Assembly (NCBI GenBank): GCA_963747695.1
Contig: CAVVFV010000010.1
Span: 261,618-325,617, forward strand
From: Candidatus Falkowbacteria bacterium
GTDB taxonomy: Bacteria > Patescibacteriota > Patescibacteriia > Patescibacteriales > WJLG01
Length of the DNA stretch: 64,000 bases
Reading direction: 5' to 3'
Shown here piece by piece: positions 2,530 to 43,448 of this stretch. Every line of letters starts with the position of its first letter. The stretch's first letter is position 1. The notes beneath the pieces were generated by a model. That model saw only the letters and a program-made list of their open reading frames with translations, did not search any database and was not told where the DNA came from. The translations under genes and the position numbers were made by a program.

Positions 2530-3390
2530 TCATTTTTCATTTTTAATTGAGAAAATGACGGCGCCATATCCGACCACCGAGTCTTTGCCGCCGATCGCCA
2601 CGTCGCCACTGTTGGCATAATGCAGAATTTTCGCCTGCCAATTAAGTTTTTCCGCCAGGCTCATCCCCGTTTTGACCGCCTCCAAGCCGCACAGCAAAGT
2701 CTCTTCGCCCGGCACTCCCGCTTCCATCGTGGCCGAAACATATTCATCAAGTTCGCCAATCCGCCCCCGCTTGATCAACTTCAAAGTTTGCTGATCGATC
2801 CGTTTGGCATCCTGATAAGCCGGATAATGCGACATATCGGAGCTGATCACCAGCAAGTCTTCATCGGTCAGCGCCGTTTCCAAAGCCGCGGCCAGCTGCC
2901 GGTAATTCTTATTCTCCATATTTCCCAAAGCGATCGGCACAATCTTGAATCCCGGCTCCAAGACGGTTTGCAGCCAGGGCAATTGAACCTCGATCATATG
3001 GTCTTCGGCCTGGACCGAACCTGATGATTTGATCTTTCTTTCCGCGGCTAGCAATTTTTGGGAAAATTCCCGATCAACCAAAACAAGACCGAGCGGCGTT
3101 TGCCACGCTTCATGGTCATCGATCACCGAGCCGTCAAAATACGATGTATGCGAACTGCCGATCAAAACGACTGTTTTAAAATTCCGGCCGGCAATCGCCG
3201 CATAAGCATAAGCCGCCACCGGGCCGCTATAATCATAACCGGCGTGCGGTACCATGATGGCGCGGATTTTTTCATCGCTCTTGGATAATTTTACTTGCGC
3301 CAAATCTTTTTTTATCATCCGCGATAATACTTCGGGATCGGCCGGATAAAAACTTCCGGCGACCGCCGGCGGCCTGATTGGATTTTCCAT
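2530..3390 (-). CDS. amrB: MEMO1-family protein (AmmeMemoRadiSam system protein B)
   Basis: PAVAGSFYP and PHAGYDYSG motifs typical of the MEMO family, in the expected three-gene context. Confidence 0.85.
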   Translation of the reverse strand: MENPIRPPAVAGSFYPADPEVLSRMIKKDLAQVKLSKSDEKIRAIMVPHAGYDYSGPVAAYAYAAIAGRNFKTVVLIGSSHTSYFDGSVIDDHEAWQTPLGLVLVDREFSQKLLAAERKIKSSGSVQAEDHMIEVQLPWLQTVLEPGFKIVPIALGNMENKNYRQLAAALETALTDEDLLVISSDMSHYPAYQDAKRIDQQTLKLIKRGRIGELDEYVSATMEAGVPGEETLLCGLEAVKTGMSLAEKLNWQAKILHYANSGDVAIGGKDSVVGYGAVIFSIKNEK

Positions 3391-3436
3391 ATTTTTTACT
3401 TTTTACATACTTGTCCCGCCGCAGCGGGATTACTTT

Positions 3437-4438
3437 TTACTTCAATATTGTTTCACCGCATTTGGGACATTTACCATTCTTATCAAATCGTCTAACTTGA
3501 TAGTAGATCCGTTCAATCGCCAGCTCGCCACAATTGGGGCAATAGGTATTATCCTGATAGCCGGACGCGTAGACAAATTTCAACCCGGCGTCTTTGCCGA
3601 TTTGCCAGGCCTTGGCTAAAATATCGCGGCTGGTTTCCGGCAGCTGTTTTAAATTCCAGGAAATCTCCGGAGAAAAACGAGATAAGTGCCAAGGAGTATC
3701 TTTACTCAAATTAAGCGCAATGAACGCGGCGATTTCTTTGAACAGACCGAGGTCGTCGGAAAGCGTGGGGATCACCAGCGTGGTTATTTCCAGATGAACG
3801 CCGGCATTGAACAGCGTCCGCAAATTTTCTAAAACCGGCGCGACTTGCGCGTGGCAGACTTTACCGTAAAAATTATCCGTCATTGATTTCAAATCAATAT
3901 TGGCAGCATCCAGATAAGGAATAATGGCGGCCAGACATTCGTCAGTCATAAACCCGTTAGAGACCCAGACATTCTTGATTTTCTTGGCGCGGGCCAATTT
4001 CATAATATCCAGCGCGTATTCGGTGAAAATCGTCGGCTCATTATAAGTATAGGCGATCGATTGGCACTGTGCCCGCTCGGCGCTGGCGATTATTTCTTCG
4101 GGCGAAACGAAAGACAATTTGGTTTTATCCAGCTTGGATTGGGTGATTTCATAATTATGGCAATTGGCGCAGCGGAAGTTGCAGCCCAAAGTTCCCAAAG
4201 AAAAAGCCGTCGAACCGGGCAGAAAATGATAAAGCGGTTTTTTTTCGATCGGATCGATATTCAGCGCGGCCGGCCGGCCGTAAACCAGCGAATATAATTC
4301 GCCGTTGATATTTTTCCGCGCCGTGCAGATCCCCGCGTTGTCCGGCAAGATATGGCAAAAATGATGGCAGAGCCGGCAATCGACGGTCTGATCGCGCGCC
4401 GGCTGATAAAATTTTGCTTGAACAAAATTATTATCCAT
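3437..4438 (-). CDS. amrS: AmmeMemoRadiSam system radical SAM enzyme
   Basis: CNFRCANC (CxxxCxxC) cluster motif, PflA-like fold signature, C-terminal CPNC..CPKC zinc-ribbon-like tail, in the three-gene context. Confidence 0.85.
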   Translation of the reverse strand: MDNNFVQAKFYQPARDQTVDCRLCHHFCHILPDNAGICTARKNINGELYSLVYGRPAALNIDPIEKKPLYHFLPGSTAFSLGTLGCNFRCANCHNYEITQSKLDKTKLSFVSPEEIIASAERAQCQSIAYTYNEPTIFTEYALDIMKLARAKKIKNVWVSNGFMTDECLAAIIPYLDAANIDLKSMTDNFYGKVCHAQVAPVLENLRTLFNAGVHLEITTLVIPTLSDDLGLFKEIAAFIALNLSKDTPWHLSRFSPEISWNLKQLPETSRDILAKAWQIGKDAGLKFVYASGYQDNTYCPNCGELAIERIYYQVRRFDKNGKCPKCGETILK

Positions 4439-5199: not shown

Positions 5200-7945
5200 C
5201 TCTCATCACCTCTCTTTCAAAGGTAGTATTCCAGGATTGGAATAAACCTTCATAGTCAAGATATCGACCTTGCACTGAAATGCCCGGCTGGTCGGTAATT
5301 TCGCCGACTAACAAGGCGTCGGCACCGAACAACTTTTCCACTTTCGCAGCCTCCGACTGTTTGACTTCCACCAGCGCTGATCCGAAACTTTCCGGAAACA
5401 GCTCGGGACACAATTGGGTTCTCACGCCCAATCCCGATCCTTCCACTCCTTCGAACAGCCGACGGAAGATTCCGCCGCAATTGATGGGAGCCGCGGAGCA
5501 GAACAAATTTCTGCCGGCTCCCCGCTCAACTTTGTCGAGGAATGGACGCGCGGCTGCGATCCCGATGCTGTCGACGGTCGGACTGAAAATGTCCAGCGCC
5601 GAAGCCAACAGCGATCCGCCCAGCGATTGAGCTTGTCTGCCGATGGCATAAAGGTAATTACCCGGTGATTGCCAGCAATGCAATCTTAATTGCCGAGCGT
5701 CCTTGATTTTGCCCATCGCATAGATTGCCACGCTGATCGGCACATTAATCACGACTCCGCGATGTTCAGCGGAACCGGACGAACTATCCTTGCCGGTGAT
5801 GAACGGTGTCCGCAGTTTTTCAGACAGATCCGAAATACTTTGGACTTGCTCTCTCAAATACCAGTACGCGTAAGGATCCAGGCATGGCGTGTAAAAATTG
5901 TCCGCCAGGCAGATGTCATAGAGATAGACCCCGGCCACTACTTGCGTGACGATCGCATCCAACATGGCGTTGATCGCCGCATTGACCGGATTGGCGTCGA
6001 ATTGCCACGGACTGTAGCTGAAACTGTGCGTCAGCCCGTAATTCTTGCCATAGACCGGCTTTTGCACGGCCAAGGCTGAAGGGATGTTATAATTCTTTCC
6101 CCACAGCGGGCCCTGAAAACTAATGCCTTGGACTGTCGAGTCATACTGCGTTGTCGCCCATTTCTGATTACAAATGTCGAAATGGCCGACCACCTTCTGA
6201 CCCATCTCCTGAACATTGTCCAAAGTGATCGTGGGGAATTTTGCCTCATCCTTGGCCTGGGGCGGAACTATCACTTTGACGTCCGCGGGCAAAGGACAAC
6301 GATCGAAATACTTATACGGCATATCGAAGAGAATTTCACCGGACAGGGGCATAGCGGCAGAATATTTTTTGATCGTCGGATCATCGATAAACTGCAACCG
6401 CCCATTACCGGTGAAGACGCCGATAACCGTCGCTTCCAACCCGTACTTCTTGTAAATCTTCATCGCCAGTTTGAGTTTGGCCGGTATGATGCATTCGGCA
6501 AACCGTTCCTGGCTTTCTCCGCTGACCACGATCTTCTTCGGTAAACCGGCGCACTTCAAGGGTATATGCGCGGTGTTGATCAATACTCCGCCGCGATAGG
6601 ATCCCCAGGCATACTTTACCGGCTCTCCGAGCTCGCCAAAAGCGGAAGGAAAACCAGCCGCGCCGAAATCATTCCCGGCTCGGGCGCATCTTTTGTCCCG
6701 GAGCTCTCTGGTGGCGCGCATCTGCCTTTGCTCAGGCGTCGGATTGCCGATCTGAACGTGACAATTGTCGCCCTCATCAGTATGCTTATCCTGTTTAATG
6801 GAGCTTTCCAAAGCGCCCATAAAACCGTCATTCCCGGTTTTGCCGCCGGAAATTACGGCCAGGTCGCCTTGGCGCGGAACGCCCCGATGGGAGAATTCCT
6901 CTTTGGTCATCCCCACGGTTATTCCCAGCGCAAACGGCTTGCCGGTGAAGCCGGGATGACTGAGCATCCTAGCCAAGAGCATCGGAATGCCCATCGGATT
7001 GCCGTAATCCCGGATCGCCCGCACGGTATCGCGCGCGATAATACAGGCTGACAACACACAATCAGCAATTTCGCCGTACTTCTTCTGGGCGAATTCGCCG
7101 ACCGCCGTCATCTCGATATTGCCGATCGGGATGGCTCCCAGGGCAAACCGCAAGATATCGCGGATTACGCCGCCGATCTTCGTGAGCTGTCCGCCGTAAG
7201 CTTCTTTGCCGGCGGGACTATTGTGAGTTTCTCCCTTCAAGACCGCGACCAACTTCTTGAAGAATTTCCAACCGCCGGCATTGTCGATAAACGCCGATTT
7301 CATATTGCGGTTTTTGATTCTCATGGTCGCGCCTTTGAGGATCTTGAACAACCCGAGTTTTTTCCATTTGGTATGGTTGCAGTGATCAGACCATCTGACC
7401 GCGAAAATATACAGCCAGACGTCGCTGACCCGAGGGATATTTTCTTCCTTCTGGATTTTGACCAGTTCCTCCATTTGCTCCCTGTCCATCGATAACCGAT
7501 AGTTCTTGGAGAGGGCCAGCAATTCATCGGTCGACATACCGGTCAGATCGAAATATTCGATCGGCTGGGCGGATCCTCTGGGCCGCAAGGTGGTCATATC
7601 CGGTTCTTTGTCTTCGAACCAGACTTGCACCATCCGGTTGCAGGTCACACCTTTGGCCGAACCATTGTAATACCGATGAGCGACTTTGGCCGCCAGGACC
7701 TCGACGCCGTATTTACGGCAAGCGCCGCAAATCTCGTCGCTGGCCGGATCGACCACGCCATTGTGATACATCAGATGAAGGAAGTGGCCGTCCGGCATTT
7801 TTTCCACGATCCTTTCGGTATTGGCATCGTGAAAAAGTTCATTCGCCAAAGTGGCAATGTCCGGATCGGGCTGCTCAATCTCCAAATGATACACCTTGTA
7901 AACATCAGTCTCGCCTTTGGGGGCGACAGCAATACTGTAGATCAT
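5189..7945 (-). CDS. purL: Phosphoribosylformylglycinamidine synthase subunit PurL, with ~170-aa N-terminal extension (possible PurS fusion)
   Basis: ETHNSP..GG.IRD motif and duplicated AIR-synthase-like domains. At 918 aa it is longer than typical small PurL proteins. The N-terminal assignment is inference. Confidence 0.8.
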   Translation of the reverse strand: MIYSIAVAPKGETDVYKVYHLEIEQPDPDIATLANELFHDANTERIVEKMPDGHFLHLMYHNGVVDPASDEICGACRKYGVEVLAAKVAHRYYNGSAKGVTCNRMVQVWFEDKEPDMTTLRPRGSAQPIEYFDLTGMSTDELLALSKNYRLSMDREQMEELVKIQKEENIPRVSDVWLYIFAVRWSDHCNHTKWKKLGLFKILKGATMRIKNRNMKSAFIDNAGGWKFFKKLVAVLKGETHNSPAGKEAYGGQLTKIGGVIRDILRFALGAIPIGNIEMTAVGEFAQKKYGEIADCVLSACIIARDTVRAIRDYGNPMGIPMLLARMLSHPGFTGKPFALGITVGMTKEEFSHRGVPRQGDLAVISGGKTGNDGFMGALESSIKQDKHTDEGDNCHVQIGNPTPEQRQMRATRELRDKRCARAGNDFGAAGFPSAFGELGEPVKYAWGSYRGGVLINTAHIPLKCAGLPKKIVVSGESQERFAECIIPAKLKLAMKIYKKYGLEATVIGVFTGNGRLQFIDDPTIKKYSAAMPLSGEILFDMPYKYFDRCPLPADVKVIVPPQAKDEAKFPTITLDNVQEMGQKVVGHFDICNQKWATTQYDSTVQGISFQGPLWGKNYNIPSALAVQKPVYGKNYGLTHSFSYSPWQFDANPVNAAINAMLDAIVTQVVAGVYLYDICLADNFYTPCLDPYAYWYLREQVQSISDLSEKLRTPFITGKDSSSGSAEHRGVVINVPISVAIYAMGKIKDARQLRLHCWQSPGNYLYAIGRQAQSLGGSLLASALDIFSPTVDSIGIAAARPFLDKVERGAGRNLFCSAAPINCGGIFRRLFEGVEGSGLGVRTQLCPELFPESFGSALVEVKQSEAAKVEKLFGADALLVGEITDQPGISVQGRYLDYEGLFQSWNTTFEREVMRDVA

Positions 7946-37485: not shown

Positions 37486-38382
37486 CTACGAATTAATAAA
37501 TGGATTTGGTTGATTAAAATCCGGCAAAAATATTTCGCCCGCTTCCGGCTCCTGTGTCCAGCCATTCTCCAGTCCAAGTTCAATTTTTTTCTTTTCCGCC
37601 GCCGCGATTTCTTCGGGCGATATTTGCCGGCTCAATTCCGGAAATTCGGCCGCGCGATTCACCCCGCCTTTTCCGGAAAGGGAGGGGTAAACCGGGAAAT
37701 ACTGGCTCATCAAACTCAAATGGATTTTTTTATCAATAGCGGCGATCTTTTCCAGCGCAGAAAAAGTATTGGGCAAATTATTCGGCAATATCATGTGCCG
37801 AATGATCAAACCTTTTTTGGCCAAGCTATTATCATCAACAGCCAATAAACCAACTTGCCGATACATTTCCCTGATCGCCTTATCCGCCACCTCGGAATAC
37901 TTTGGCGCGTGCGAATATTTCGCCGCCGCGACATCGTCCCCATATTTAAAATCGGGGAGATAAATATCAATCAACCCTGCTAAATCTTTAATCGCCTCGA
38001 CCGATTCATAAGCGTTGGAATTCCAAGCCAGCGGAATTTTTAATCCTTTTTCTTTGGCCAGAACAATCGCCTGCTTTATTTCCCGCCGCCACGGTGTGGG
38101 AGTCACTAAATCAATATTAGCCGCTCCCTGCTTTTGCAGATCCAACATTATTTGTGCCAATTCTTCGACCGAATATTCTTTGCCCAAATTTTCCCAACTG
38201 ATCTGCCAATTCTGGCAAAAAACGCAATGCAAATTACAGCCGGAAAAGAATATCGTCCCCGCTCCGAATTTCTCCCCTCCTTCCGAAGGAGGGGTTTGGG
38301 GGTGGTTTGCCTGTCCGACTAGCGGCGGTTCCTCGCCGAAATGCTTGCCGAACCAAGCAATTTTGATTTTTCTTTCAGCCAT
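37486..38382 (-). CDS. Radical SAM protein (PflX/PflA-like), carrying two palindrome-encoded in-frame inserts
   Basis: GCNLHCVFCQNWQIS CxxxCxxC motif. The inserts PPSEGGEKF and SLSGKGGVNRA coincide with GC-rich palindromes. Confidence 0.75.
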   Translation of the reverse strand: MAERKIKIAWFGKHFGEEPPLVGQANHPQTPPSEGGEKFGAGTIFFSGCNLHCVFCQNWQISWENLGKEYSVEELAQIMLDLQKQGAANIDLVTPTPWRREIKQAIVLAKEKGLKIPLAWNSNAYESVEAIKDLAGLIDIYLPDFKYGDDVAAAKYSHAPKYSEVADKAIREMYRQVGLLAVDDNSLAKKGLIIRHMILPNNLPNTFSALEKIAAIDKKIHLSLMSQYFPVYPSLSGKGGVNRAAEFPELSRQISPEEIAAAEKKKIELGLENGWTQEPEAGEIFLPDFNQPNPFINS

Positions 38383-38429
38383 ACTTAAAGCTTACAACAA
38401 AAGGCGTTCCAATGAAACGCCCTCTGCCC

Positions 38430-38795
38430 TTGTCGGGGTACTGGGATTCGGTCACGGCTCTCGTCGGCTTCCGCCTCCTCGGCCGCGAACCCCGCCTCGC
38501 GATGCGGCTCGCCAAATGCTCGCCACATATCGCTCCGGCATTCAAATCCCATCGCGAGCCAAGCAGTTGGCTCGCTTTACCCCGACAAAAAAACGGCTTA
38601 GGCCGTTTTTCCTTGTCGGGGTACTGGGATTCGGTCACGGCTCTCGTCGGCTTCCGCCTCCTCGGCCGCGAACCCCGCCTCGCGATGCGGCTCGCCAAAT
38701 GCTCGCCACATATCGCTCCGGCATTCAAATCCCATCGCGAGCCAAGCAGTTGGCTCGCTTTACCCCGACAAAAAAACGGCTTAGGCCGTTTTTCC
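38430..38795 (-). repeat. Tandem array (2 x 183 bp, identical) of tRNA-linked GC-rich element, subfamily 1
   Basis: Period 183 bp measured at 38430, 38613 and 38796. Each unit carries tRNA-Pro acceptor strands, a T-loop copy and a terminator-like hairpin. Confidence 0.85.
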
Positions 38796-38798
38796 TTG

Positions 38799-38884
38799 TC
38801 GGGGTACTGGGATTCGAACCCAGAACCTTCCACCTACGTTCCGAGGCGGAACTTCGGTGGACGCAGCACGCACCTTCGTGAAAA
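38799..38884 (-). pseudogene. tRNA-Pro 3' half (anticodon stem 3' strand to acceptor end) with a 38-nt hairpin insertion
   Basis: Minus strand reads GGTGCGTG + TCCACC...GGTGGA hairpin + AGGTT-CTGGG-TTCGAAT-CCCAG-TACCCCG-A. No matching 5' half adjoins it. Confidence 0.7.
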
Positions 38885-38961
38885 TGGTCGGGGTACTGGG
38901 ACTCGAACCCAGAACCTCACGCACCCGAAGCGTGCGCCATAGCCAATTAGGCCATACCCCG
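38885..38961 (-). tRNA. tRNA-Pro(CGG), CCA encoded
   Basis: Acceptor CGGGGTA/TACCCCG, anticodon arm CACGC-TTCGGGT-GCGTG, T arm CTGGG-TTCGAGT-CCCAG, A73, CCA. Confidence 0.9.
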
Positions 38962-39028
38962 ACCATTTTCGCGAATTTAAAAAATAATGTAAGCACCTTT
39001 ACCCGCCGAAGCGATTAGCGAAGGCGGG

Positions 39029-39064
39029 CGAAGCGTGCGCCATAGCCAATTAGGCCATACCCCG
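39029..39064 (-). pseudogene. tRNA-Pro 5' fragment (first 36 nt)
   Basis: 36/36 identical to 38926-38961. It then diverges into the hairpin CCCGCC...GGCGGG. Confidence 0.75.
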
Positions 39065-39188
39065 AAAAAACAATTAAAAATTAAAAATGAAAAGTTAAAA
39101 ATTTAATATATAATTTCAGCCTACAGTATAAACAGTCTGTCGTCAATAAAAATATTTTTAATTTTGCATTTTTAATTTTTAATTGTTT

Positions 39189-39273
39189 TGGTGGGCATGG
39201 AGAGACTCGAACTCTCAAGGATTGCTCCGTACGCACCTGAAGCGTATGCGTCTACCAATTTCGCCACATGCCC
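39189..39273 (-). tRNA. tRNA-Leu(CAG), CCA encoded
   Basis: Acceptor GGGCATG/CATGCCC, anticodon arm TACGC-TTCAGGT-GCGTA, long variable arm, T arm GAGAG-TTCGAGT-CTCTC, A73, CCA. Confidence 0.9.
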
Positions 39274-39382
39274 GAAATAGTATCTCGTATTTAGTATTTG
39301 GTATTTCGTATATAAATTTTCTGTCTGGCTCGTTCTTCTTCAAATAAAATTAAAAATCAAAAAACTGATTTTCGATTTTATG

Positions 39383-39455
39383 AGCGGGAGACGGGGCTTG
39401 AACCCGCTGCCTCAACCTTGGGAAGGTCGCGCTCTACCAGATGAGCTACTCCCGC
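39383..39455 (-). tRNA. tRNA-Gly(CCC)
   Basis: Acceptor GCGGGAG/CTCCCGC, anticodon arm CGACC-TTCCCAA-GGTTG, T loop TTCAAGC, U73. No encoded CCA. Confidence 0.9.
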
Positions 39456-39501
39456 CTCTCATCGTCTTGTTTGCTCGTCCGCCTTGGGCGGAGGAAGCAA
39501 A

Positions 39502-39526
39502 CATTCTACCGTTGAATTACTCCCGC
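39502..39526 (-). pseudogene. tRNA 5' fragment (Gly-like acceptor plus D arm)
   Basis: Minus strand reads GCGGGAGTAATTCAACGGTAGAATG, followed by the palindrome TTTGCT..TCCGCC-CAAG-GCGGA..AGCAAA. No T arm. Confidence 0.6.
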
Positions 39527-39569
39527 CGTCATTCGCCGGAACCTCAGCGAAGGCGAACTTCGCCAAATC

Positions 39570-40253
39570 CTAATTATCAATATGTTTAATTCCAATTTCC
39601 GGAAAAACAACCTCTTCGCCAGTCGAAAGCAGAAAAGCCACGGTTGCCGCAACTTCTTTCGTATCTAAGGCATTATTCATGTCTTTTTTTAAGCCCATCT
39701 TTTCAAACATCTTTGTTTTCATTTTTCCCAAATAGAGACCAGTAACCCTAATATGATATTTTGATAATTCCTCCTGAATCGATTTAGTAAATCCGGTTAT
39801 TGCCCATTTGGAGGCGGTGTAAACGGATCTATCCGCCTTGGCGTAAAGCCCTGCTTGCGAAACGACATTGATGATAAAACCATTCTTTTGTTTTTTCATA
39901 ATCGGCACAACTTTTTGAGTAAGCAAAATTGTTCCTGTCGTGTTAACAGCGATTACTTCTTTAATTTTTTCGGCGTCACTTTGGTCAATGCCTCCCTCAA
40001 TCCAAAGCCCGGCATTATTTATCAAGCAATCAATTCTCTGATATTTTTTCTCAATTGCGCTTACCGCCGATTCAATTTCCTTTTCACTGGAAATATCACA
40101 AACCAAAAAATCGCATCCTAATTCTTTGGCCGTCTGTTTCAACTTGACGCTGTCATGAGCAAGCAAAATAACACTGTAATCGGATGCCAATTTTTGGGCA
40201 ATCTCCCTGCCTAGCCCATCGCTACCTCCGGAAATGACGACTACTTTTTTCAT
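39570..40253 (-). CDS. Short-chain dehydrogenase/reductase (SDR) family oxidoreductase
   Basis: SGGSDGLG cofactor motif, NNAG, and YTASKWA catalytic YxxxK. Confidence 0.85.
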   Translation of the reverse strand: MKKVVVISGGSDGLGREIAQKLASDYSVILLAHDSVKLKQTAKELGCDFLVCDISSEKEIESAVSAIEKKYQRIDCLINNAGLWIEGGIDQSDAEKIKEVIAVNTTGTILLTQKVVPIMKKQKNGFIINVVSQAGLYAKADRSVYTASKWAITGFTKSIQEELSKYHIRVTGLYLGKMKTKMFEKMGLKKDMNNALDTKEVAATVAFLLSTGEEVVFPEIGIKHIDN

Positions 40254-40272
40254 AGATAATAATATTATCTTG

Positions 40273-40343
40273 TGGACCTAGGCGGAGTCGAACCGCCGCC
40301 TCTGCAATGCGAATGCAACGTCATACCGCTAGACTATAGGCCC
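40273..40343 (-). tRNA. tRNA-Ala(CGC)
   Basis: Acceptor GGGCCTA/TAGGTCC with G3:U70, anticodon loop TTCGCAT, T arm GGCGG-TTCGACT-CCGCC, A73. No encoded CCA. Confidence 0.9.
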
Positions 40344-40351
40344 GCAAACTT

Positions 40352-40476
40352 TGTGGACAATACTGGGCTCGGTCACAGCTCTCGCTCGCTTCCGCTCGCT
40401 CGGCCGCGACCCCGCCTCGCCGTCTTGCTCGCCAAATAGCTCGCAAGACATGGCTCCGGCATTCGAGCCCTGCCCC
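40352..40476 (-). repeat. tRNA-linked GC-rich element, subfamily 1 (solo copy belonging to tRNA-Val)
   Basis: Its first 21 nt (TTGTGGACAATACTGGGCTCG) equal the tRNA-Val 3' end at 40511-40531. The core is collinear with the 183-bp units. It ends in GGCATTCGAGCCC, an inverted tRNA-Val T loop. Confidence 0.8.
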
Positions 40477-40513
40477 TAAAATATTTATCTGACGAAGGTC
40501 AGTAAATATTTTG

Positions 40514-40587
40514 TGGACAATACTGGGCTCGAACCAGTGACCTCTGCAATGTGAATGCAGCGCTCTAACCAACTGAGCTAATTGTCC
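40514..40587 (-). tRNA. tRNA-Val(CAC)
   Basis: Acceptor GGACAAT/ATTGTCC, anticodon arm CTGCA-TTCACAT-TGCAG, T arm ACTGG-TTCGAGC-CCAGT, A73. Confidence 0.9.
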
Positions 40588-40607
40588 GAAACGCCAGAAA
40601 ATTAGCG

Positions 40608-40670
40608 TGTCGGGGTACTGGCCCCGCCAGCCGGCGGGGTCTCCGCTTCGCTCCGAGAATCTCACCACTC
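40608..40670 (-). repeat. Degenerate element remnant ending in a tRNA-Pro-type 3' end
   Basis: TGTCGGGGTACTGG (as in the 38430 array) is followed by the GC-rich hairpin CCCCGCC-AGCC-GGCGGGG. Confidence 0.5.
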
Positions 40671-40675
40671 ACTTG

Positions 40676-40746
40676 TCGGGCTGCGCGGAATCGAACCGCG
40701 GCTACATGCACCCCATGCACGCGTACTACCATTATACGACAGCCCG
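40676..40746 (-). tRNA. tRNA-Pro(GGG)
   Basis: Acceptor CGGGCTG/CAGCCCG, anticodon arm CGTGC-ATGGGGT-GCATG, T arm CGCGG-TTCGATT-CCGCG, A73. Confidence 0.85.
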
Positions 40747-40760
40747 CTATTAAGGCGCGC

Positions 40761-40806
40761 CTGTCCCGCCTTCACGGCGGGATACTACCGCTATACTATA
40801 CCCCGC
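40761..40806 (-). pseudogene. tRNA 5' fragment (GCGGGGTA acceptor plus D-arm-like) fused to a GC hairpin
   Basis: Minus strand reads GCGGGGTATAGTATAGCGGTAGTA, then TCCCGCC-GTGAA-GGCGGGA. No T arm or 3' acceptor strand adjoins it. Confidence 0.55.
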
Positions 40807-40932
40807 CCCTCACCATTTTTCACAAAAAAATCGAACGCCTCCGTAAACTAAAAACGACCTTTTGAATAGTTTACGAAAAATGGTGAGGGGTCGTTTTTAA
40901 TACTATAAAACTTTACCAAAAAAAGCAAGAAA

Positions 40933-41094
40933 TCAGTCTCTTGACTGGAAAAAATCGCAATGGCCGTTGGGCGGGACTTCGCATTTGGCCTCCGAGCAGG
41001 CTCCGGTTTCCGGATCAAAACCGGTGCAACGGGAACATTCATTGTCGGGATTGGACCAGTCGGCGACAAAATTGGCTTCGATTTCGTGAGACAT
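40933..41094 (-). CDS. Small cysteine-rich protein (53 aa), HiPIP-like C-x2-C...C...C pattern
   Basis: Hand-translated as MSHEIEANFVADWSNPDNECSRCTGFDPETGACSEAKCEVPPNGHCDFFQSRD. Below the 60-aa ORF-track cutoff. The competing 73-aa ORF in another frame looks non-protein-like. Confidence 0.45.
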   Translation of the reverse strand: MSHEIEANFVADWSNPDNECSRCTGFDPETGACSEAKCEVPPNGHCDFFQSRD

Positions 41095-41125
41095 ACTTAT
41101 TATCAGATTAATTTTTAATACTGTA

Positions 41126-42154
41126 TTATTGCGCGGTCGAGGTTGCCTCCGGCGTTAAAATTTTGAAACTCTGGGCCATGCCTTCCAGAACCAGATTGAT
41201 CTTTAAGCGATCAAACTGCTTGATCCCCTGTTCGGGAGGGTAATTCAAAATATCGTTGGAATGGATGATCGACTCGACGGCATAGCATTGGCCATTGTAA
41301 ACAGTCCGGTAACTGGTGACATCGTAATAATTTCCAACGCCGGCGTCGGTGAAAATTATTTTGGTGAAATTGCGGTTGCCGATTATCACCTTGGTGGTGG
41401 TGGCAAAATTGCCAAAGTCCGAGATCAGGCAATTCTTGACCGCGCCGGGATCGGCGCTTGTCCCCACCGAAAATTTGGCTTCGCCGAAATTAGTTCCCGG
41501 CATAAATGAGCGGGGAATATTCACGACCGCCAGCAATAGACCAGTGCTGGAGGAATTATAACTCCAGTCTTGGGAAAAACCGATTTCTCCGCCGGAGAGA
41601 ACGAATTGGCTGGGATGGGAAAAAGAGAAAGTATTTTCCTCGTCCGTATATGTATTGATATCTCCGGAAGATGTCTGGTTGCCGGCCACGCAATTGGTAT
41701 AGGTAGTAATATCTTTTTGCGTCAAGAAAGCGTTATCGCCCTTGCTTACCAGAACCGTCGTCCCCGATTCATAGCGGATCCCCGAACCGGACCTAACTTG
41801 CGGCAAGGTCGTCGTACTGCCGTCTTTAAAGATCAGACTGACCGAACTCGAACCGTAATTAGCGCGCAGCACGCCCTCCTGACAAAAATATTTGATGATA
41901 TTAGAACTGGTGGCCGCCGTGCAATCCTCTTCCCAAGGCCGCAGGCATTTCTGCTTGACTTCGCACCAAGAATATCCGGCTGAACCGATACACCCGTGCG
42001 CGTCACGGTCATTGCCGACTAATGATCCGGCTGGAGTAGGATTACTCATCTTTTCCAGCCAGGGGAATTTTTGCCGGTTAAGATACAGATATCCGCCGCC
42101 GACAACCAAGACAATAATAATGATCAAAACAAAGGTTAAAAATTTATCTTTCAT
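41126..42154 (-). CDS. Membrane-anchored exported protein with MliC-like (lysozyme-inhibitor fold) domain
   Basis: N-terminal TM anchor. The central segment LRANYGSSSVSLIFKDGSTTTLPQVRSGSGIRYESG..VLVSKGDNAFL matches the MliC pattern. Confidence 0.55.
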   Translation of the reverse strand: MKDKFLTFVLIIIIVLVVGGGYLYLNRQKFPWLEKMSNPTPAGSLVGNDRDAHGCIGSAGYSWCEVKQKCLRPWEEDCTAATSSNIIKYFCQEGVLRANYGSSSVSLIFKDGSTTTLPQVRSGSGIRYESGTTVLVSKGDNAFLTQKDITTYTNCVAGNQTSSGDINTYTDEENTFSFSHPSQFVLSGGEIGFSQDWSYNSSSTGLLLAVVNIPRSFMPGTNFGEAKFSVGTSADPGAVKNCLISDFGNFATTTKVIIGNRNFTKIIFTDAGVGNYYDVTSYRTVYNGQCYAVESIIHSNDILNYPPEQGIKQFDRLKINLVLEGMAQSFKILTPEATSTAQ

Positions 42155-42214
42155 AGGTTTAATGATGTGTTTAATTACGCCTCAATTATAGCAGCTTTTA
42201 GATTTAAAAAACAA

Positions 42215-42814
42215 CCTGACGCAGGTCGGACTGATTCGGTCACGGCTCTCACTCGCTTCCGCCTCCTCGGCCTCGACCCCGGCTCGCGGTGCTCGGCGCC
42301 GGAATGCGCCTCGCACAACGCTGCGCCTTTCGAATCCTCTCATTTTCCATTCTAACTTAAAAGACCTGACGCAGGTCGGACTGATTCGGTCACGGCTCTC
42401 GTCGGCTTCCGCCTCCTCGGCCTCGACCCCGGCTCGCGGTGCTCGGCGCCGGAATGCGCCTCGCACAACGCTGCGCCTTTCGAATCCTCTCATTTTCCAT
42501 TCTAACTTAAAAGACCTGACGCAGGTCGGACTGATTCGGTCACGGCTCTCGTCGGCTTCCGCCTCCTCGGCCTCGACCCCGGCTCGCGGTGCTCGGCGCC
42601 GGAATGCGCCTCGCACAACGCTGCGCCTTTCGAATCCTCTCATTTTCCATTCTAACTTAAAAGACCTGACGCAGGTCGGACTGATTCGGTCACGGCTCTC
42701 GTCGGCTTCCGCCTCCTCGGCCTCGACCCCGGCTCGCGGTGCTCGGCGCCGGAATGCGCCTCGCACAACGCTGCGCCTTTCGAATCCTCTCATTTTCCAT
42801 TCTAACTTAAAAGA
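42215..42814 (-). repeat. Tandem array (4 x 150 bp) of tRNA-linked GC-rich element, subfamily 1 (tRNA-Ser copy)
   Basis: Period 150 bp measured at 42215, 42365, 42515, 42665 and 42815. Copies 2-4 are identical. A 40-nt run is identical to the 183-bp units. Each unit carries an inverted 15-nt copy of the tRNA-Ser T-loop/acceptor region. Confidence 0.85.
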
Positions 42815-42843
42815 CCTGACGCAGGTCAGGTCTTTTAAGTTAG

Positions 42844-42930
42844 CGGAGATGAGAGGATTCGAACCTCTGATGCCCTTACGGACATACCGCATTTCGAGTG
42901 CGGCCCATTCGACCACTCTGGCACATCTCC
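42844..42930 (-). tRNA. tRNA-Ser(CGA)
   Basis: Acceptor GGAGATG/CATCTCC, anticodon arm CCGCA-CTCGAAA-TGCGG, long variable arm, T arm AGAGG-TTCGAAT-CCTCT, G73. Confidence 0.9.
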
Positions 42931-43124
42931 ATTTTTTAATTACAAATTATGAATTATTAATTATAAATTTTATGGATATTAGTTAATCTACTATTTAAAC
43001 TACAAAGAGTCAATATTGCTAATTTGCCAAAATTTTTTAATACCCGCTTTTGACAAAATTCGACGCGGGTGATAATTTAAAGCGTTGATCTTTGCTTGAC
43101 TGAACATTTTCCTGGAGGTAAAAA

Positions 43125-43448
43125 ATGTATTATTACAGTAAGAAACATCACAAAAAAATAAATGTCAGGGTAAGGGAAGGTTTACGGATGATCGTTGAGG
43201 AAGCGACCGGTAATTTTTCATTCGCTTATCCGAAAAATTCGCCGCTCGCGGAGGCAACACTGTTCTGGGAAACAGCCAGCAATACGGCAGTCATGAAACC
43301 GGAACAATTGAGCAACGGCAAAATCAATTATTTAACGGCGGCCAATCTCTGCGCAAATCTGTCTGGCTTAACGGCTTTCCCGGAAGAATTCAAAGAGAAA
43401 GACAAATATCGTGAATTCGTTTTTGCCAAAACGTCCAATAATCTTTGA
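43125..43448 (+). CDS. Hypothetical protein
   Basis: 107-aa ORF preceded by GGAGG. No recognised family. Confidence 0.4.
   Translation: MYYYSKKHHKKINVRVREGLRMIVEEATGNFSFAYPKNSPLAEATLFWETASNTAVMKPEQLSNGKINYLTAANLCANLSGLTAFPEEFKEKDKYREFVFAKTSNNL

Follow-up and report, generated by a model that had tools for sequence, protein, structure and literature searches.

Tandem units behind a tRNA-Pro locus of a Falkowbacteria genome as probable copies of a mobile structured RNA element of the Patescibacteria

The stretch of DNA analysed here, called the window, is 64,000 nucleotides (nt) long and comes from a Candidatus Falkowbacteria bacterium (assembly GCA_963747695.1, contig CAVVFV010000010.1, positions 261,618 to 325,617 of the forward strand). 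Behind a tRNA-Pro locus it carries a tandem array on the minus strand, which is also the strand of the tRNA (38428..38816). An earlier note on this DNA, made from the sequence alone, had described two identical 183-bp units there, and Tandem Repeats Finder bears this out with a period of 183 bp, 2.1 copies, 100% matches and zero indels; as placed by that program and by sequence, the array takes in a third copy of a 20-nt segment of the tRNA-Pro 3' end. The units are interpreted here as tandem copies of a non-autonomous, mobile, structured RNA element, GC-rich and about 125-160 nt long, that belongs to a family of the Patescibacteria. This reading is given a probability of roughly 0.6. In the Pro-linked array and in a second array behind tRNA-Ser, the repeat unit consists of the element, a direct repeat and a hairpin, and the arrays contain 61-64% G+C compared with 46.6% for the window. 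An independent short-read contig (locus L167) terminates within the Pro-linked array, which fits a repeat at this place and gives no copy count; thus, the copy number depends on the source assembly only.

All the parts that the earlier note had listed on the minus strand can be located, those of the unit nearer the tRNA within 38614-38793 and those of the second unit 183 nt lower. Copy A of the element (38614..38767, minus; z = -7.1 for the minimum free energy fold; covariance-model match at 38621-38743, 125 bits) begins with the left arm CGGGGTA (38761-38767), followed by a hairpin, HP0, with the sequence GCGAGCC-AACTGCTT-GGCTCGC (38737-38758) and by the 5' strand of helix P1, GGGATTTG (38726-38733). 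The GC-rich core (38634-38722) comprises P2 (38675-38722) and P3 (38634-38674) and leads into the 3' strand of P1, CGAATCCC (38626-38633), and then AG-TACCCCG-ACA, so that the whole tail occupies 38614-38633. Copy B (38431..38584, minus) is the same as copy A at -183 nt, as Tandem Repeats Finder also indicates, and its covariance-model match (38438-38560) likewise scores 125 bits. A terminator-like hairpin, AAAAACGGCC-TAA-GCCGTTTTTTT with a T run, lies inside each repeat unit (38770..38793 and 38587-38610, minus) and is paired in the predicted fold. A distinct hairpin, GGCGTT-TCATTGG-AACGCC with TTTT (38399..38421, minus), closes the array upstream of a gene identified from the open reading frame (ORF) list and Pfam as encoding a radical-SAM protein (start 38382). 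The exact 20-nt copy of a tRNA-Pro 3' end reported earlier is confirmed: the 20-mer TGTCGGGGTACTGGGATTCG of the units is found again at 38797-38816, in an orphan tRNA-Pro 3' part, and identity with tRNA-Pro begins at C56 in the T loop.

The minus strand of a Pro unit folds at -101.6 kcal/mol (z = -7.1 compared with shuffles) and is more stable than the plus strand, which folds at -84.9 kcal/mol. Both of the nested helices proposed in the earlier note form in the minus-strand fold. The inner one is P1 and is well supported across the family. The outer one, a 7-bp acceptor-like helix (CGGGGTA/TACCCCG) predicted to stack on P1 in the Pro units, is only weakly a family feature: the complementarity of left arm and tail is 3.77 family-wide against 3.50 +/- 0.08 in permuted controls, a marginal difference, and the acceptor-like helix occurs in a subset of copies. 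The description of the units as tRNA-mimicking fits only the terminal helix, because the Rfam tRNA model misses them even at E <= 10. The units are called as tRNA by neither ARAGORN nor Rfam; T-loop nucleotides 56-60 are paired in P1, and there is no D arm and no anticodon arm.

Five further copies in the window (one at 40359-40481 and four units in 42214-42827) had not been linked to the Pro units by the earlier note. With a covariance model of the element (R1, run with filters off), seven copies are detected in the window, each of them on the minus strand, which is the strand of the tRNA genes. The host is tRNA-Ser(cga) for four, tRNA-Pro for two and tRNA-Val(cac) for one, so 3 of the 11 tRNA genes in the window bear the element. 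The single copy lies between tRNA-Val(cac) and tRNA-Ala(cgc) (40359..40481, minus; 106 bits) and has a direct repeat, CGAGCCCAGTATTGTCCACAAA, that is tRNA-Val from C56 onward; its host tRNA-Val(cac) is at 40513..40587 (minus; ARAGORN, Rfam). The Ser-linked array (42214..42827, minus) has a period of 150 bp, 4.1 copies and 99% matches in Tandem Repeats Finder and scores 107.6 / 89 bits with the covariance model. Its cores are at 42676-42798, 42526-42648, 42376-42498 and 42226-42348, the last being degenerate, and its host tRNA-Ser(cga) is at 42843..42930 (minus; ARAGORN, Rfam). In this array tRNA-Ser 54-68 appears as its reverse complement in the 5' arm ATGAGAGGATTCGAA, only CGAATC is left of the 3' arm, and a hairpin stands at every unit boundary. 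Ser and Pro units have a 40-nt identical stretch in common; the adjoining ~55 nt differ yet fold alike.

The family extends far beyond the window. Species-representative genomes were scanned with an exact 23-mer of the core as bait, and metagenomes with a different bait, the P2 motif GCCGGAGCGATG...CGCGAGGCGG, which was chosen to be distinct from the 23-mer because conservation should not be judged by its own bait; other genomes were covered as 8-15-kb stretches around the loci. The 23-mer is exact in 46 loci (species-representative genomes), almost all in metagenome-assembled genomes (MAGs) of Patescibacteria, including Yanofsky-, Magasanik-, Uhr-, Kuenen- and Niyogibacteria and others labelled Saccharibacteria. 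Five loci in four MAGs are labelled Gammaproteobacteria (L001, L013, L022, L040 and L043, of which L040 and L043 are two contigs of one MAG), and one MAG is labelled Nanoarchaeia. At least one of the gammaproteobacterial labels is doubtful because a protein at L043 is 78% identical to one on an Uhrbacteria contig. The P2 motif matches at least 120 metagenome loci, about seven of those listed being GC-rich coding false positives; only 10 of the 123 matches listed also contain the 23-mer, and variation in the distal part of P3 is accompanied by compensating changes. In total, the family comprises at least 170 copies on ~160 public contigs, almost all from Patescibacteria. The number of copies per contig ranges from one to at least five, and two-copy arrays occur at four other loci (L003, L013, L115 and L117).

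Comparison of these copies defines the fold. The RNAalifold consensus of 43 cores (alignment A1) contains 26 pairs, 18 of them with compensatory changes, and R1 was built from it. Among the matches listed, R1 finds 107 copies in 100 metagenome loci, and the 102 distinct sequences among them (alignment A2) have 95.3% of cells paired, compared with 72.5% in column shuffles. Both sides change in 23 of the 26 pairs. The covariation score of A2 is 0.432 compared with 0.112 in shuffles, a value reached by none of 500 shuffles, and it is only 0.05-0.08 when partner columns are slid by 1-3 positions. Paired columns contain 87 G-U/U-G cells against 26 A-C/C-A cells. This G-U excess, together with tandem G-A internal loops on the tRNA strand, identifies the tRNA strand as the structured one. 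The fold is under selection on the tRNA strand. From 5' to 3' it consists of HP0, the P1 5' strand, a GAAC linker, P2, P3 and the P1 3' strand, with P1, P2 and P3 forming a three-way junction. HP0 ends about 3 nt ahead of P1; its stem is at least 6 bp long in 150 copies, and its loop is CTGC in 45. The P1 5' strand reads GGATTCG, or GGATGAG where tandem G-A takes the place of two Watson-Crick pairs. The internal loop of P2 is GGA/GAG and its distal stem is variable; P3 has one or more tandem G-A modules and a GGAA or GACG cap, and the junction and loop nucleotides are nearly invariant. The first of two options in the earlier note, a family of small structured RNAs, is strongly supported in its structural part, since the two helices it had proposed and two more covary in more than 100 sequences. 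Protein-coding units were considered, and covariation, G-U pairs and tandem G-A loops point to RNA instead, no homology search having been made.

The Pro units alone could suggest purely local duplication by unequal crossing-over between neighbouring tRNA-Pro genes, with repeats that fold by chance. The Pro locus is visibly rearranged and contains orphan tRNA-Pro halves, and E. coli tyrT/tyrV has the same outline (178 bp x 3.1). Against such an origin, the same core lies behind tRNA-Val and tRNA-Ser in the window, and there are at least 160 other loci in many lineages, with a covarying structure. The probability that local duplication explains the units is therefore very low, and as a full explanation it is refuted by the copies at other window tRNAs, the other loci and the covariation; unequal crossing-over is likely the cause of the tandem state only. 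The E. coli locus may be regarded as the closest classical analogue of that tandem state. Its repeat has a period of 178, 3.1 copies and 95% matches, lies over the last 19 nt of tyrV and is annotated as the non-coding RNA rttR. As in E. coli rtT/RttR, the present units are tandem, of similar length, behind a tRNA and on the tRNA strand, and each ends in a tRNA 3' segment (~19 nt in E. coli). The tyrT papers of 1978-1981 reportedly describe co-transcription of the E. coli repeats with the tRNA, followed by their release as a small RNA. However, rtT is confined to one enterobacterial locus whereas the present element is dispersed behind at least 18 kinds of tRNA, and the element has a covarying three-way-junction core and a host-matched inverted 5' arm; homology to RtT was not found in the Rfam scans.

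Described RNA families do not account for the element. Rfam 15 was searched with 4227 models, including tRNA, tmRNA, RtT, introns of groups I and II, hammerhead, twister, hatchet, pistol, HEARO and IS605-orfB. At the gathering score the whole window matches tRNA genes only, and between 38200 and 43200 at E <= 10 there is no match on the unit cores save chance-level isrK/Erse matches of 11-20 bits. The mascRNA, tmRNA and RtT models do not match the units. The earlier note had called for a comparison with Rfam. There is also no account of the element in the literature searched, a search outside which most subscription journals lie. The family is absent from the tools and literature searched and is apparently undescribed.

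About 95% of copies lie directly downstream of a tRNA on the same strand. In a profile hidden Markov model search, 101 of 132 copies have a same-strand ARAGORN tRNA within 250 nt upstream, with a median gap of 55 nt, and the host tRNAs span 18 amino-acid identities. The apparent non-tRNA exceptions include tRNAs with group I introns that ARAGORN misses (L002, L020, L037 and one copy at L095), and the remaining ones include contig ends and inner array members. Copies of the HP0 type begin 2-10 nt after the tRNA end. Of 171 copies, 101 share with the sequence upstream an exact direct repeat that is 10 nt or longer (median 20 nt). It begins at C56 in 60 of the 83 copies that can be scored and ends a median of 1 nt beyond the tRNA end, with a range of 0-60 nt beyond. 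Copies whose repeat reaches up to 60 nt past the tRNA and includes the terminator hairpin (L044 and L029) look young. The host tRNA remains intact because its 3' part is duplicated.

Both arms of P1 correspond to the host gene. The 3' strand directly copies the last ~20 nt of the upstream gene, which in a tRNA reach from C56 to the 3' end. The 5' strand does not copy the 5' strand of the T stem but is reverse-complementary to about positions 54-65 of the tRNA, T-loop nucleotides included; the loop CGAGC of tRNA-Val is matched by a 5' arm GCTCG, and the loop CGATT of tRNA-Arg by a 5' arm AATCG. About 3% of copies lie behind protein genes, namely those for S18 (L136) and S9 (L126/L068/L076) and topA (L119), where the last codons of the gene recur in the 3' arm and are complemented by the 5' arm. 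The earlier note had held that units at loci unrelated to tRNA genes in related genomes would speak against its reading, and these ~3% behind S18, S9 and topA are a marginal instance of that. Genes downstream of the element are heterogeneous and without a common theme. A riboswitch or 5' leader was rejected on this ground and on the ground that position is fixed to the upstream tRNA.

The match between the 5' arm and the sequence that follows the insertion point, in tRNA and protein-gene hosts alike, could also suggest an intron-like mobile RNA, either a ribozyme or a ribonucleoprotein RNA. Such an RNA would insert at the RNA level between U55 and C56, guided by pairing of its 5' arm with tRNA 56-65, and would be fixed in DNA by reverse transcription and recombination; the usual order of tRNA, element and repeat would be the surviving form because the tRNA is left intact in it. 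Core conservation like that of catalytic or ribonucleoprotein RNA favors this possibility, as does one copy in the T loop of an otherwise complete tRNA-Ser(tga) (L095, 3341-3498). Self-splicing tRNA introns are unusually abundant in Patescibacteria (PMC13011429). However, only 1 of 171 copies interrupts a tRNA, and that tRNA has a variable arm that looks poor by eye and is a possible pseudogene. No known ribozyme family in Rfam matches the element, its two junctions, one at each end of P1, correspond to no known geometry of splice sites, and no reverse transcriptase is associated with it at ~160 loci. The intron-like reading is therefore improbable. Equally improbable is its wider form, a new class of mobile RNA that chooses its target by base pairing and inserts at U55/C56; the members of such a class would have a ~100-nt ribozyme or ribonucleoprotein core and a rewritable 5' guide complementary to tRNA 56-65 or to another gene's 3' end.

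A T-loop intron was also considered as the general state of the element and was rejected. When each of the 171 copies was excised in silico and the product submitted to ARAGORN, a tRNA was restored only once, the tRNA-Ser(tga) at L095; the other 170 copies lie outside an intact tRNA. The L095 case (3341-3498, minus) is a short version of the element within the T loop, with no intact copy of the tRNA adjoining, and the Rfam tRNA model spans the element as an 80-nt insertion (37 bits). This interrupted gene could be either a T-loop intron or a dead gene. Group I introns have been described in the tRNAs of Patescibacteria, in the anticodon loop including position 35/36; they match RF00028, self-splice and mostly lack homing endonucleases (PMC13011429). 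The element resembles them in being a structured RNA insertion in the same organisms and the same genes, and several copies lie behind intron-bearing tRNAs. Unlike them, it has no match to an intron model (none to RF00028 at the units), lies outside the tRNA in 170 of 171 copies and is too small for a group I core.

Movement of the element is apparent from a related genome and from pairs of copies. The earlier note had suggested that orthologous tRNA-Pro loci be compared. In a syntenic relative (L168), whose radical-SAM protein is 77% identical, the genes are the same and so are the seven tRNAs and their order. R1 has no match in L168, so there is no copy at the three orthologous tRNA sites (Pro, Val and Ser). 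Behind tRNA-Pro(cgg) and tRNA-Val(cac) of L168, the next gene follows directly. Nor does the element follow the descent of a given tRNA. The nearest inner core in another locus belongs to a tRNA with the same anticodon in 4 of 123 cases (chance, 3.5%), and vertical inheritance with a given tRNA is therefore rejected. Median core identity is 0.78 within a contig compared with 0.53 between contigs.

Pairs of similar cores behind different tRNAs show that the arms change with the host. At L104, the core behind tRNA-Lys(ctt) is the same as that behind tRNA-Arg(tcg) except at two positions; the 5' arms, AGAGAATCG (Arg) and GTAGGATTCG (Lys), each complement their own tRNA, and the 3' arms are likewise matched. 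A further 25 pairs combine cores at least 90% identical with different 3' arms; in most of these pairs the two copies follow different tRNAs and have arms that match their own host, and one of the 25 comes from a single genome sampled twice. At L095, the copy behind tRNA-Ser(cga) has a core identical to that of the copy inside tRNA-Ser(tga). On its 5' side are 21 nt of the tRNA-Ser(tga) variable arm and T stem, its 3' arm is from tRNA-Ser(cga), and its P1 is weakened. Since this copy retains the 5' flank of the donor, the 3' arm would change first and the 5' arm would be matched later. The element moves between tRNA genes, with both arms matching each host.

The relative L168 also contains an insert of another kind. 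At 2905-3062, a hairpin is followed by a different insert of ~150 nt behind tRNA-Ser(cga), which starts with GGATTCGAAC and ends in a copy of the tRNA-Ser 3' end, after which the ancestral terminator hairpin stands. The insertion logic is like that of the element and the cargo is unrelated; no relative of this cargo is present among the loci collected.

Some of these features are those of tRNA-targeting integrative elements, and the second option of the earlier note had been a miniature element of this kind. In its classical form, a tyrosine integrase encoded elsewhere would recombine an attP-like site with the T loop, and repeated integration would produce the arrays. tRNA-targeting tyrosine integrases reportedly use a T-loop sublocation, said to have been described by Williams in 2002 in Nucleic Acids Res. 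The islands and prophages that target tRNA genes resemble the present element in their 3' repeat starting in the T loop, in the intact tRNA and in possible tandem accretion. The repeat from a fixed C56 to the tRNA 3' end, the presence of XerC/D-type recombinases in some loci, and the L168 Ser insert, which displaced the ancestral terminator distally as T-loop insertion with a replacement 3' end predicts, are in keeping with such a mechanism. However, the element is only ~130-160 nt long and has no integrase of its own or nearby, at ~160 loci or in the window. All-against-all clustering of 802 ORFs from the surroundings of ~160 loci, rather than from whole genomes, reveals no recurrent recombinase or reverse transcriptase; 6 serine and 4 tyrosine (XerC/D-like) recombinases are present at variable distances. 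As the earlier note had supposed, the 64-kb window has no integrase, at least as far as tblastn for homologs of tyrosine and serine recombinases can tell. Additionally, the 5' arm is an inverted copy of each target, which a fixed attP site would not become, the core is a structured RNA, the insertions at S9, S18 and topA have no T loop, and the repeat extends 0-60 nt beyond the tRNA end. The second option thus stands with regard to the direct repeat at a fixed T-loop sublocation (C56), the absence of copies at the three L168 sites and an inner-core phylogeny uncoupled from tRNA identity, and it falls with regard to the classical integrase mechanism, in view of the lack of a consistently co-occurring recombinase, the host-matched inverted 5' arm and the protein-gene hosts. 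That mechanism is considered distinctly unlikely.

Other partners and vectors were considered and rejected. The commonest neighbour (11 loci) is a small membrane protein that weakly matches DUF3093, followed by a helix-turn-helix (HTH) protein (8 loci); the most frequent neighbours, in 11, 8, 6 and 4 loci, lie at variable distances and do not amount to an association. The P2 motif has zero matches in 2.9 million viral contigs, and one unit compared by blastn with 50,697 phage records has no match; these results also count against the integrase mechanism. A phage vector was rejected on both results, plasmids not having been searched. TIGR arrays have two variable spacers between conserved repeats and lie beside a Nop-domain Tas protein (PMC12045711). 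The present units are 100% (Pro) and 99% (Ser) identical, without variable spacers, and the eight ORFs that flank them are housekeeping genes, so TIGR arrays were rejected, with Nop domains not searched window-wide.

The element may also be compared with repeats of the miniature inverted-repeat transposable element (MITE) type. Correia elements of Neisseria, the enterobacterial ERIC/IRU elements and the Rickettsia palindromic elements are small, non-autonomous, dispersed, variably present and often co-transcribed. MITE-like repeats have terminal inverted repeats that form a long RNA helix; these repeats are fixed, are recognised by a transposase and are accompanied by short target duplications of fixed length. 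The present element is likewise small, non-autonomous, dispersed and present or absent between relatives. In contrast to MITE-like repeats, its terminal helix consists of target sequence and differs from site to site, its conservation lies in the internal junction and its spread is at phylum level. The terminal helix changes with the host tRNA while cores are 90-98% identical, and the duplicated segment reaches from C56 to a point 0-60 nt past the tRNA end instead of having a short fixed length. The element resembles tRNA-linked repeats, tRNA-targeting integrative elements and folding MITE-like repeats, and fails the tests that define each of them.

A different explanation is that the copies form a family of small RNA genes beneficial to the host. 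The terminal helix derived from tRNA would serve in maturation from the tRNA co-transcript, by RNase P, 3'-end processing enzymes and the CCA-adding enzyme. The core would act in trans or in cis, for instance by binding protein, by stabilising tRNA or ribosomal-protein transcripts, or as a regulator able to pair with the cognate T arm, and both duplication and movement would be side effects of T-loop homology. Strong covariation and near-invariant junction and loop nucleotides accord with this explanation. Copies are always on the tRNA strand, those of the HP0 type are spaced 2-10 nt from the tRNA like a downstream tRNA in an operon, some lie behind the highly expressed S9 and S18 genes, and many lineages of Patescibacteria have them despite small genomes. 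The 7-bp acceptor-like helix on P1 in the Pro units also fits. tRNA-like 3' modules, such as mascRNA of MALAT1, plant tRNA-snoRNA dicistrons and viral tRNA-like structures, are used as processing signals, and a helix that copies the acceptor and T arm could by analogy recruit RNase P, RNase Z or the CCA-adding enzyme. Unlike these modules, the element has no unpaired T loop, and its acceptor-like helix occurs only in a subset of copies, the family-wide signal being 3.77 against 3.50 +/- 0.08 in permutations. No single copy can be indispensable because the close syntenic relative L168 lacks the element at all three tRNAs. Moreover, there are from one to at least five copies per contig, host tRNAs look arbitrary, the downstream genes have no common theme, and perfect tandem amplification is unusual for a dosage-sensitive RNA gene. 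A small RNA gene family as the full account is thus rather unlikely, though a serious possibility; it is compatible with mobility, and the two are not exclusive.

The reading preferred here remains that of a non-autonomous mobile structured RNA element, and a route for its movement can be proposed. Anatomy and mobility are held with much higher confidence than the first three steps of this route. The element would share a transcript with the tRNA, by readthrough from the promoter of the latter, and would fold as RNA. The CGAATC of its 3' arm would then recombine or template-switch with the near-universal GTTCGAATC of another tRNA gene, so that the new 3' arm is acquired first; the outcome would be the C56 junction, a duplication up to the first switch point and occasional carry-over of the donor 5' flank. 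In the third step, the 5' arm would be corrected from the 3' arm in one go by hairpin-templated synthesis of the quasipalindrome type, nucleated by palindromic TTCGAA pairing and taking place on the strand complementary to the RNA. Such rewriting is preferred to point mutation because cores that differ at two positions have arms that differ at 4-8. Finally, unequal recombination would become possible between the direct repeats, which are 23-50 nt long and comprise the tRNA 3' end and the hairpin; such recombination would produce the perfect two- and four-copy arrays of the window and the two-copy arrays at L003, L013, L115 and L117.

Several points weigh against this reading. Both scans were baited with conserved motifs, which biases sequence conservation and the limits of the family, and the alignment used for covariation (A2) was fitted to a model, which favors structure; the three-way-junction fold is nonetheless credible, given the effect size and the independent RNAalifold result. 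Concerted evolution between the copies of one genome could mimic some of the signal of spread within genomes. Expression, RNA ends and processing are matters of inference, as are the recombination and template-switch steps, which are deduced from their end products only. Additionally, the conserved HP0 often sits between two segments derived from the target (the left arm and the P1 5' strand), an arrangement for which simple fold-back copying does not account. The near-invariant unpaired junction nucleotides exceed what a passive hitch-hiker would need and suggest a further function. Protein binding, catalysis as a ribozyme and the signalling of processing are possible roles of the P2/P3 core.

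The tRNA-Pro locus next to the array has been rearranged in other ways. The resident tRNA-Pro(cgg) (38797-39064, minus) is broken exactly between anticodon positions 35 and 36 by a 154-nt insert. Its orphan 5' part, positions 1-35, is at 39029..39064 (minus, by sequence), and its displaced 3' part, from position 36 to the 3' end, is at 38797..38874 (minus), the last 20 nt of which are the first copy of the direct repeat. Joining the 5' part to 38874 onward restores the anticodon arm CACGC-TTCGGGT-GCGTG, and the T loop of the displaced part is TTCGAAT, as in the uninterrupted L168 ortholog. The variable loop of this part holds a GC-rich 38-nt hairpin insert, CTGCGTCCACC-GAAGTTCCGCCTCGGAACGTA-GGTGGA (about 38829-38866, minus), that is not in the L168 tRNA-Pro ortholog. 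The 154-nt insert contains a second, complete tRNA-Pro(cgg) with the T loop TTCGAGT and an encoded CCA (38885..38961, minus; ARAGORN, Rfam), whose acceptor stem is lengthened by the flanks GAAAATGGT / ACCATTTTC. Position 35/36 is an unusual group I intron site reported in Patescibacteria (PMC13011429); no intron model in Rfam matches the insert (38200-43200, E <= 10). A second case of an orphan 5' half with an intact gene lies in the same tRNA cluster: a tRNA-Gly-like 5' part, GCGGGAGTAATTCAACGGTAGAATGTTTGCTTCC (~39470-39527, minus), is immediately upstream of an intact tRNA-Gly(ccc), with a GC-rich hairpin in place of the rest of the anticodon loop. At L140 (~60-330), a copy of the element lies between a tRNA-Pro(ggg) 5' part that ends in the anticodon loop and a complete downstream tRNA-Pro(ggg); this is a duplication of the 5' half, unlike the usual duplication of the 3' end, and it resembles the split tRNA-Pro of the window.

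Other small repeats are present in these genomes. Relative to a homolog that is 76% identical, the radical-SAM protein (gene 37486-38382, minus) contains two in-frame insertions, one of 14 and one of 10 residues, and they coincide with short GC-rich palindromes, …CCCCTCCTTCCGAAGGAGGGG… and …CCGCCTTTTCCGGAAAGGGAGGGG… (~38266-38307 and 37651-37680), which recall the Rickettsia palindromic elements inserted in frame in genes. In L168, the spacer between tRNA-Ala and tRNA-Gly (6441-6582) contains repeated GC-rich hairpins, GCCCGCCGAAG…CGAAGG, and similar short motifs occur near the tRNA-Pro locus of the window, which suggests another family of small palindromic repeats. An ORF at 19850-20467 (minus), beside tRNA-Arg(tct) and tRNA-His, is 33% identical to the recurring HTH protein family; that family is found in 8 element-bearing loci, often next to group I introns in tRNAs, and the ORF may be a homing-endonuclease-like gene.

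The element has consequences for the reading of these genomes. Together with the tRNA fragments it carries, it breaks short-read assemblies, and its orphan tRNA 3' ends look like integrase att sites and may mislead tRNA annotation and the prediction of genomic islands. Strong covariation and the lack of an Rfam entry make the family a concrete candidate for a new RNA class. If it were an RNA-guided mobile RNA, the rare T-loop intron would be the first tRNA intron of bacteria to lie beyond the anticodon loop and also the first outside group I. The genomes of Patescibacteria are tiny, and yet seven copies of a structured element of 125-160 nt are present in 64 kb of this one. Both ends of the element are built from its target, one as a direct and one as an inverted copy, and are rewritten when it moves, an arrangement that is not predicted by the standard models of integrase att sites, transposon inverted repeats or introns.

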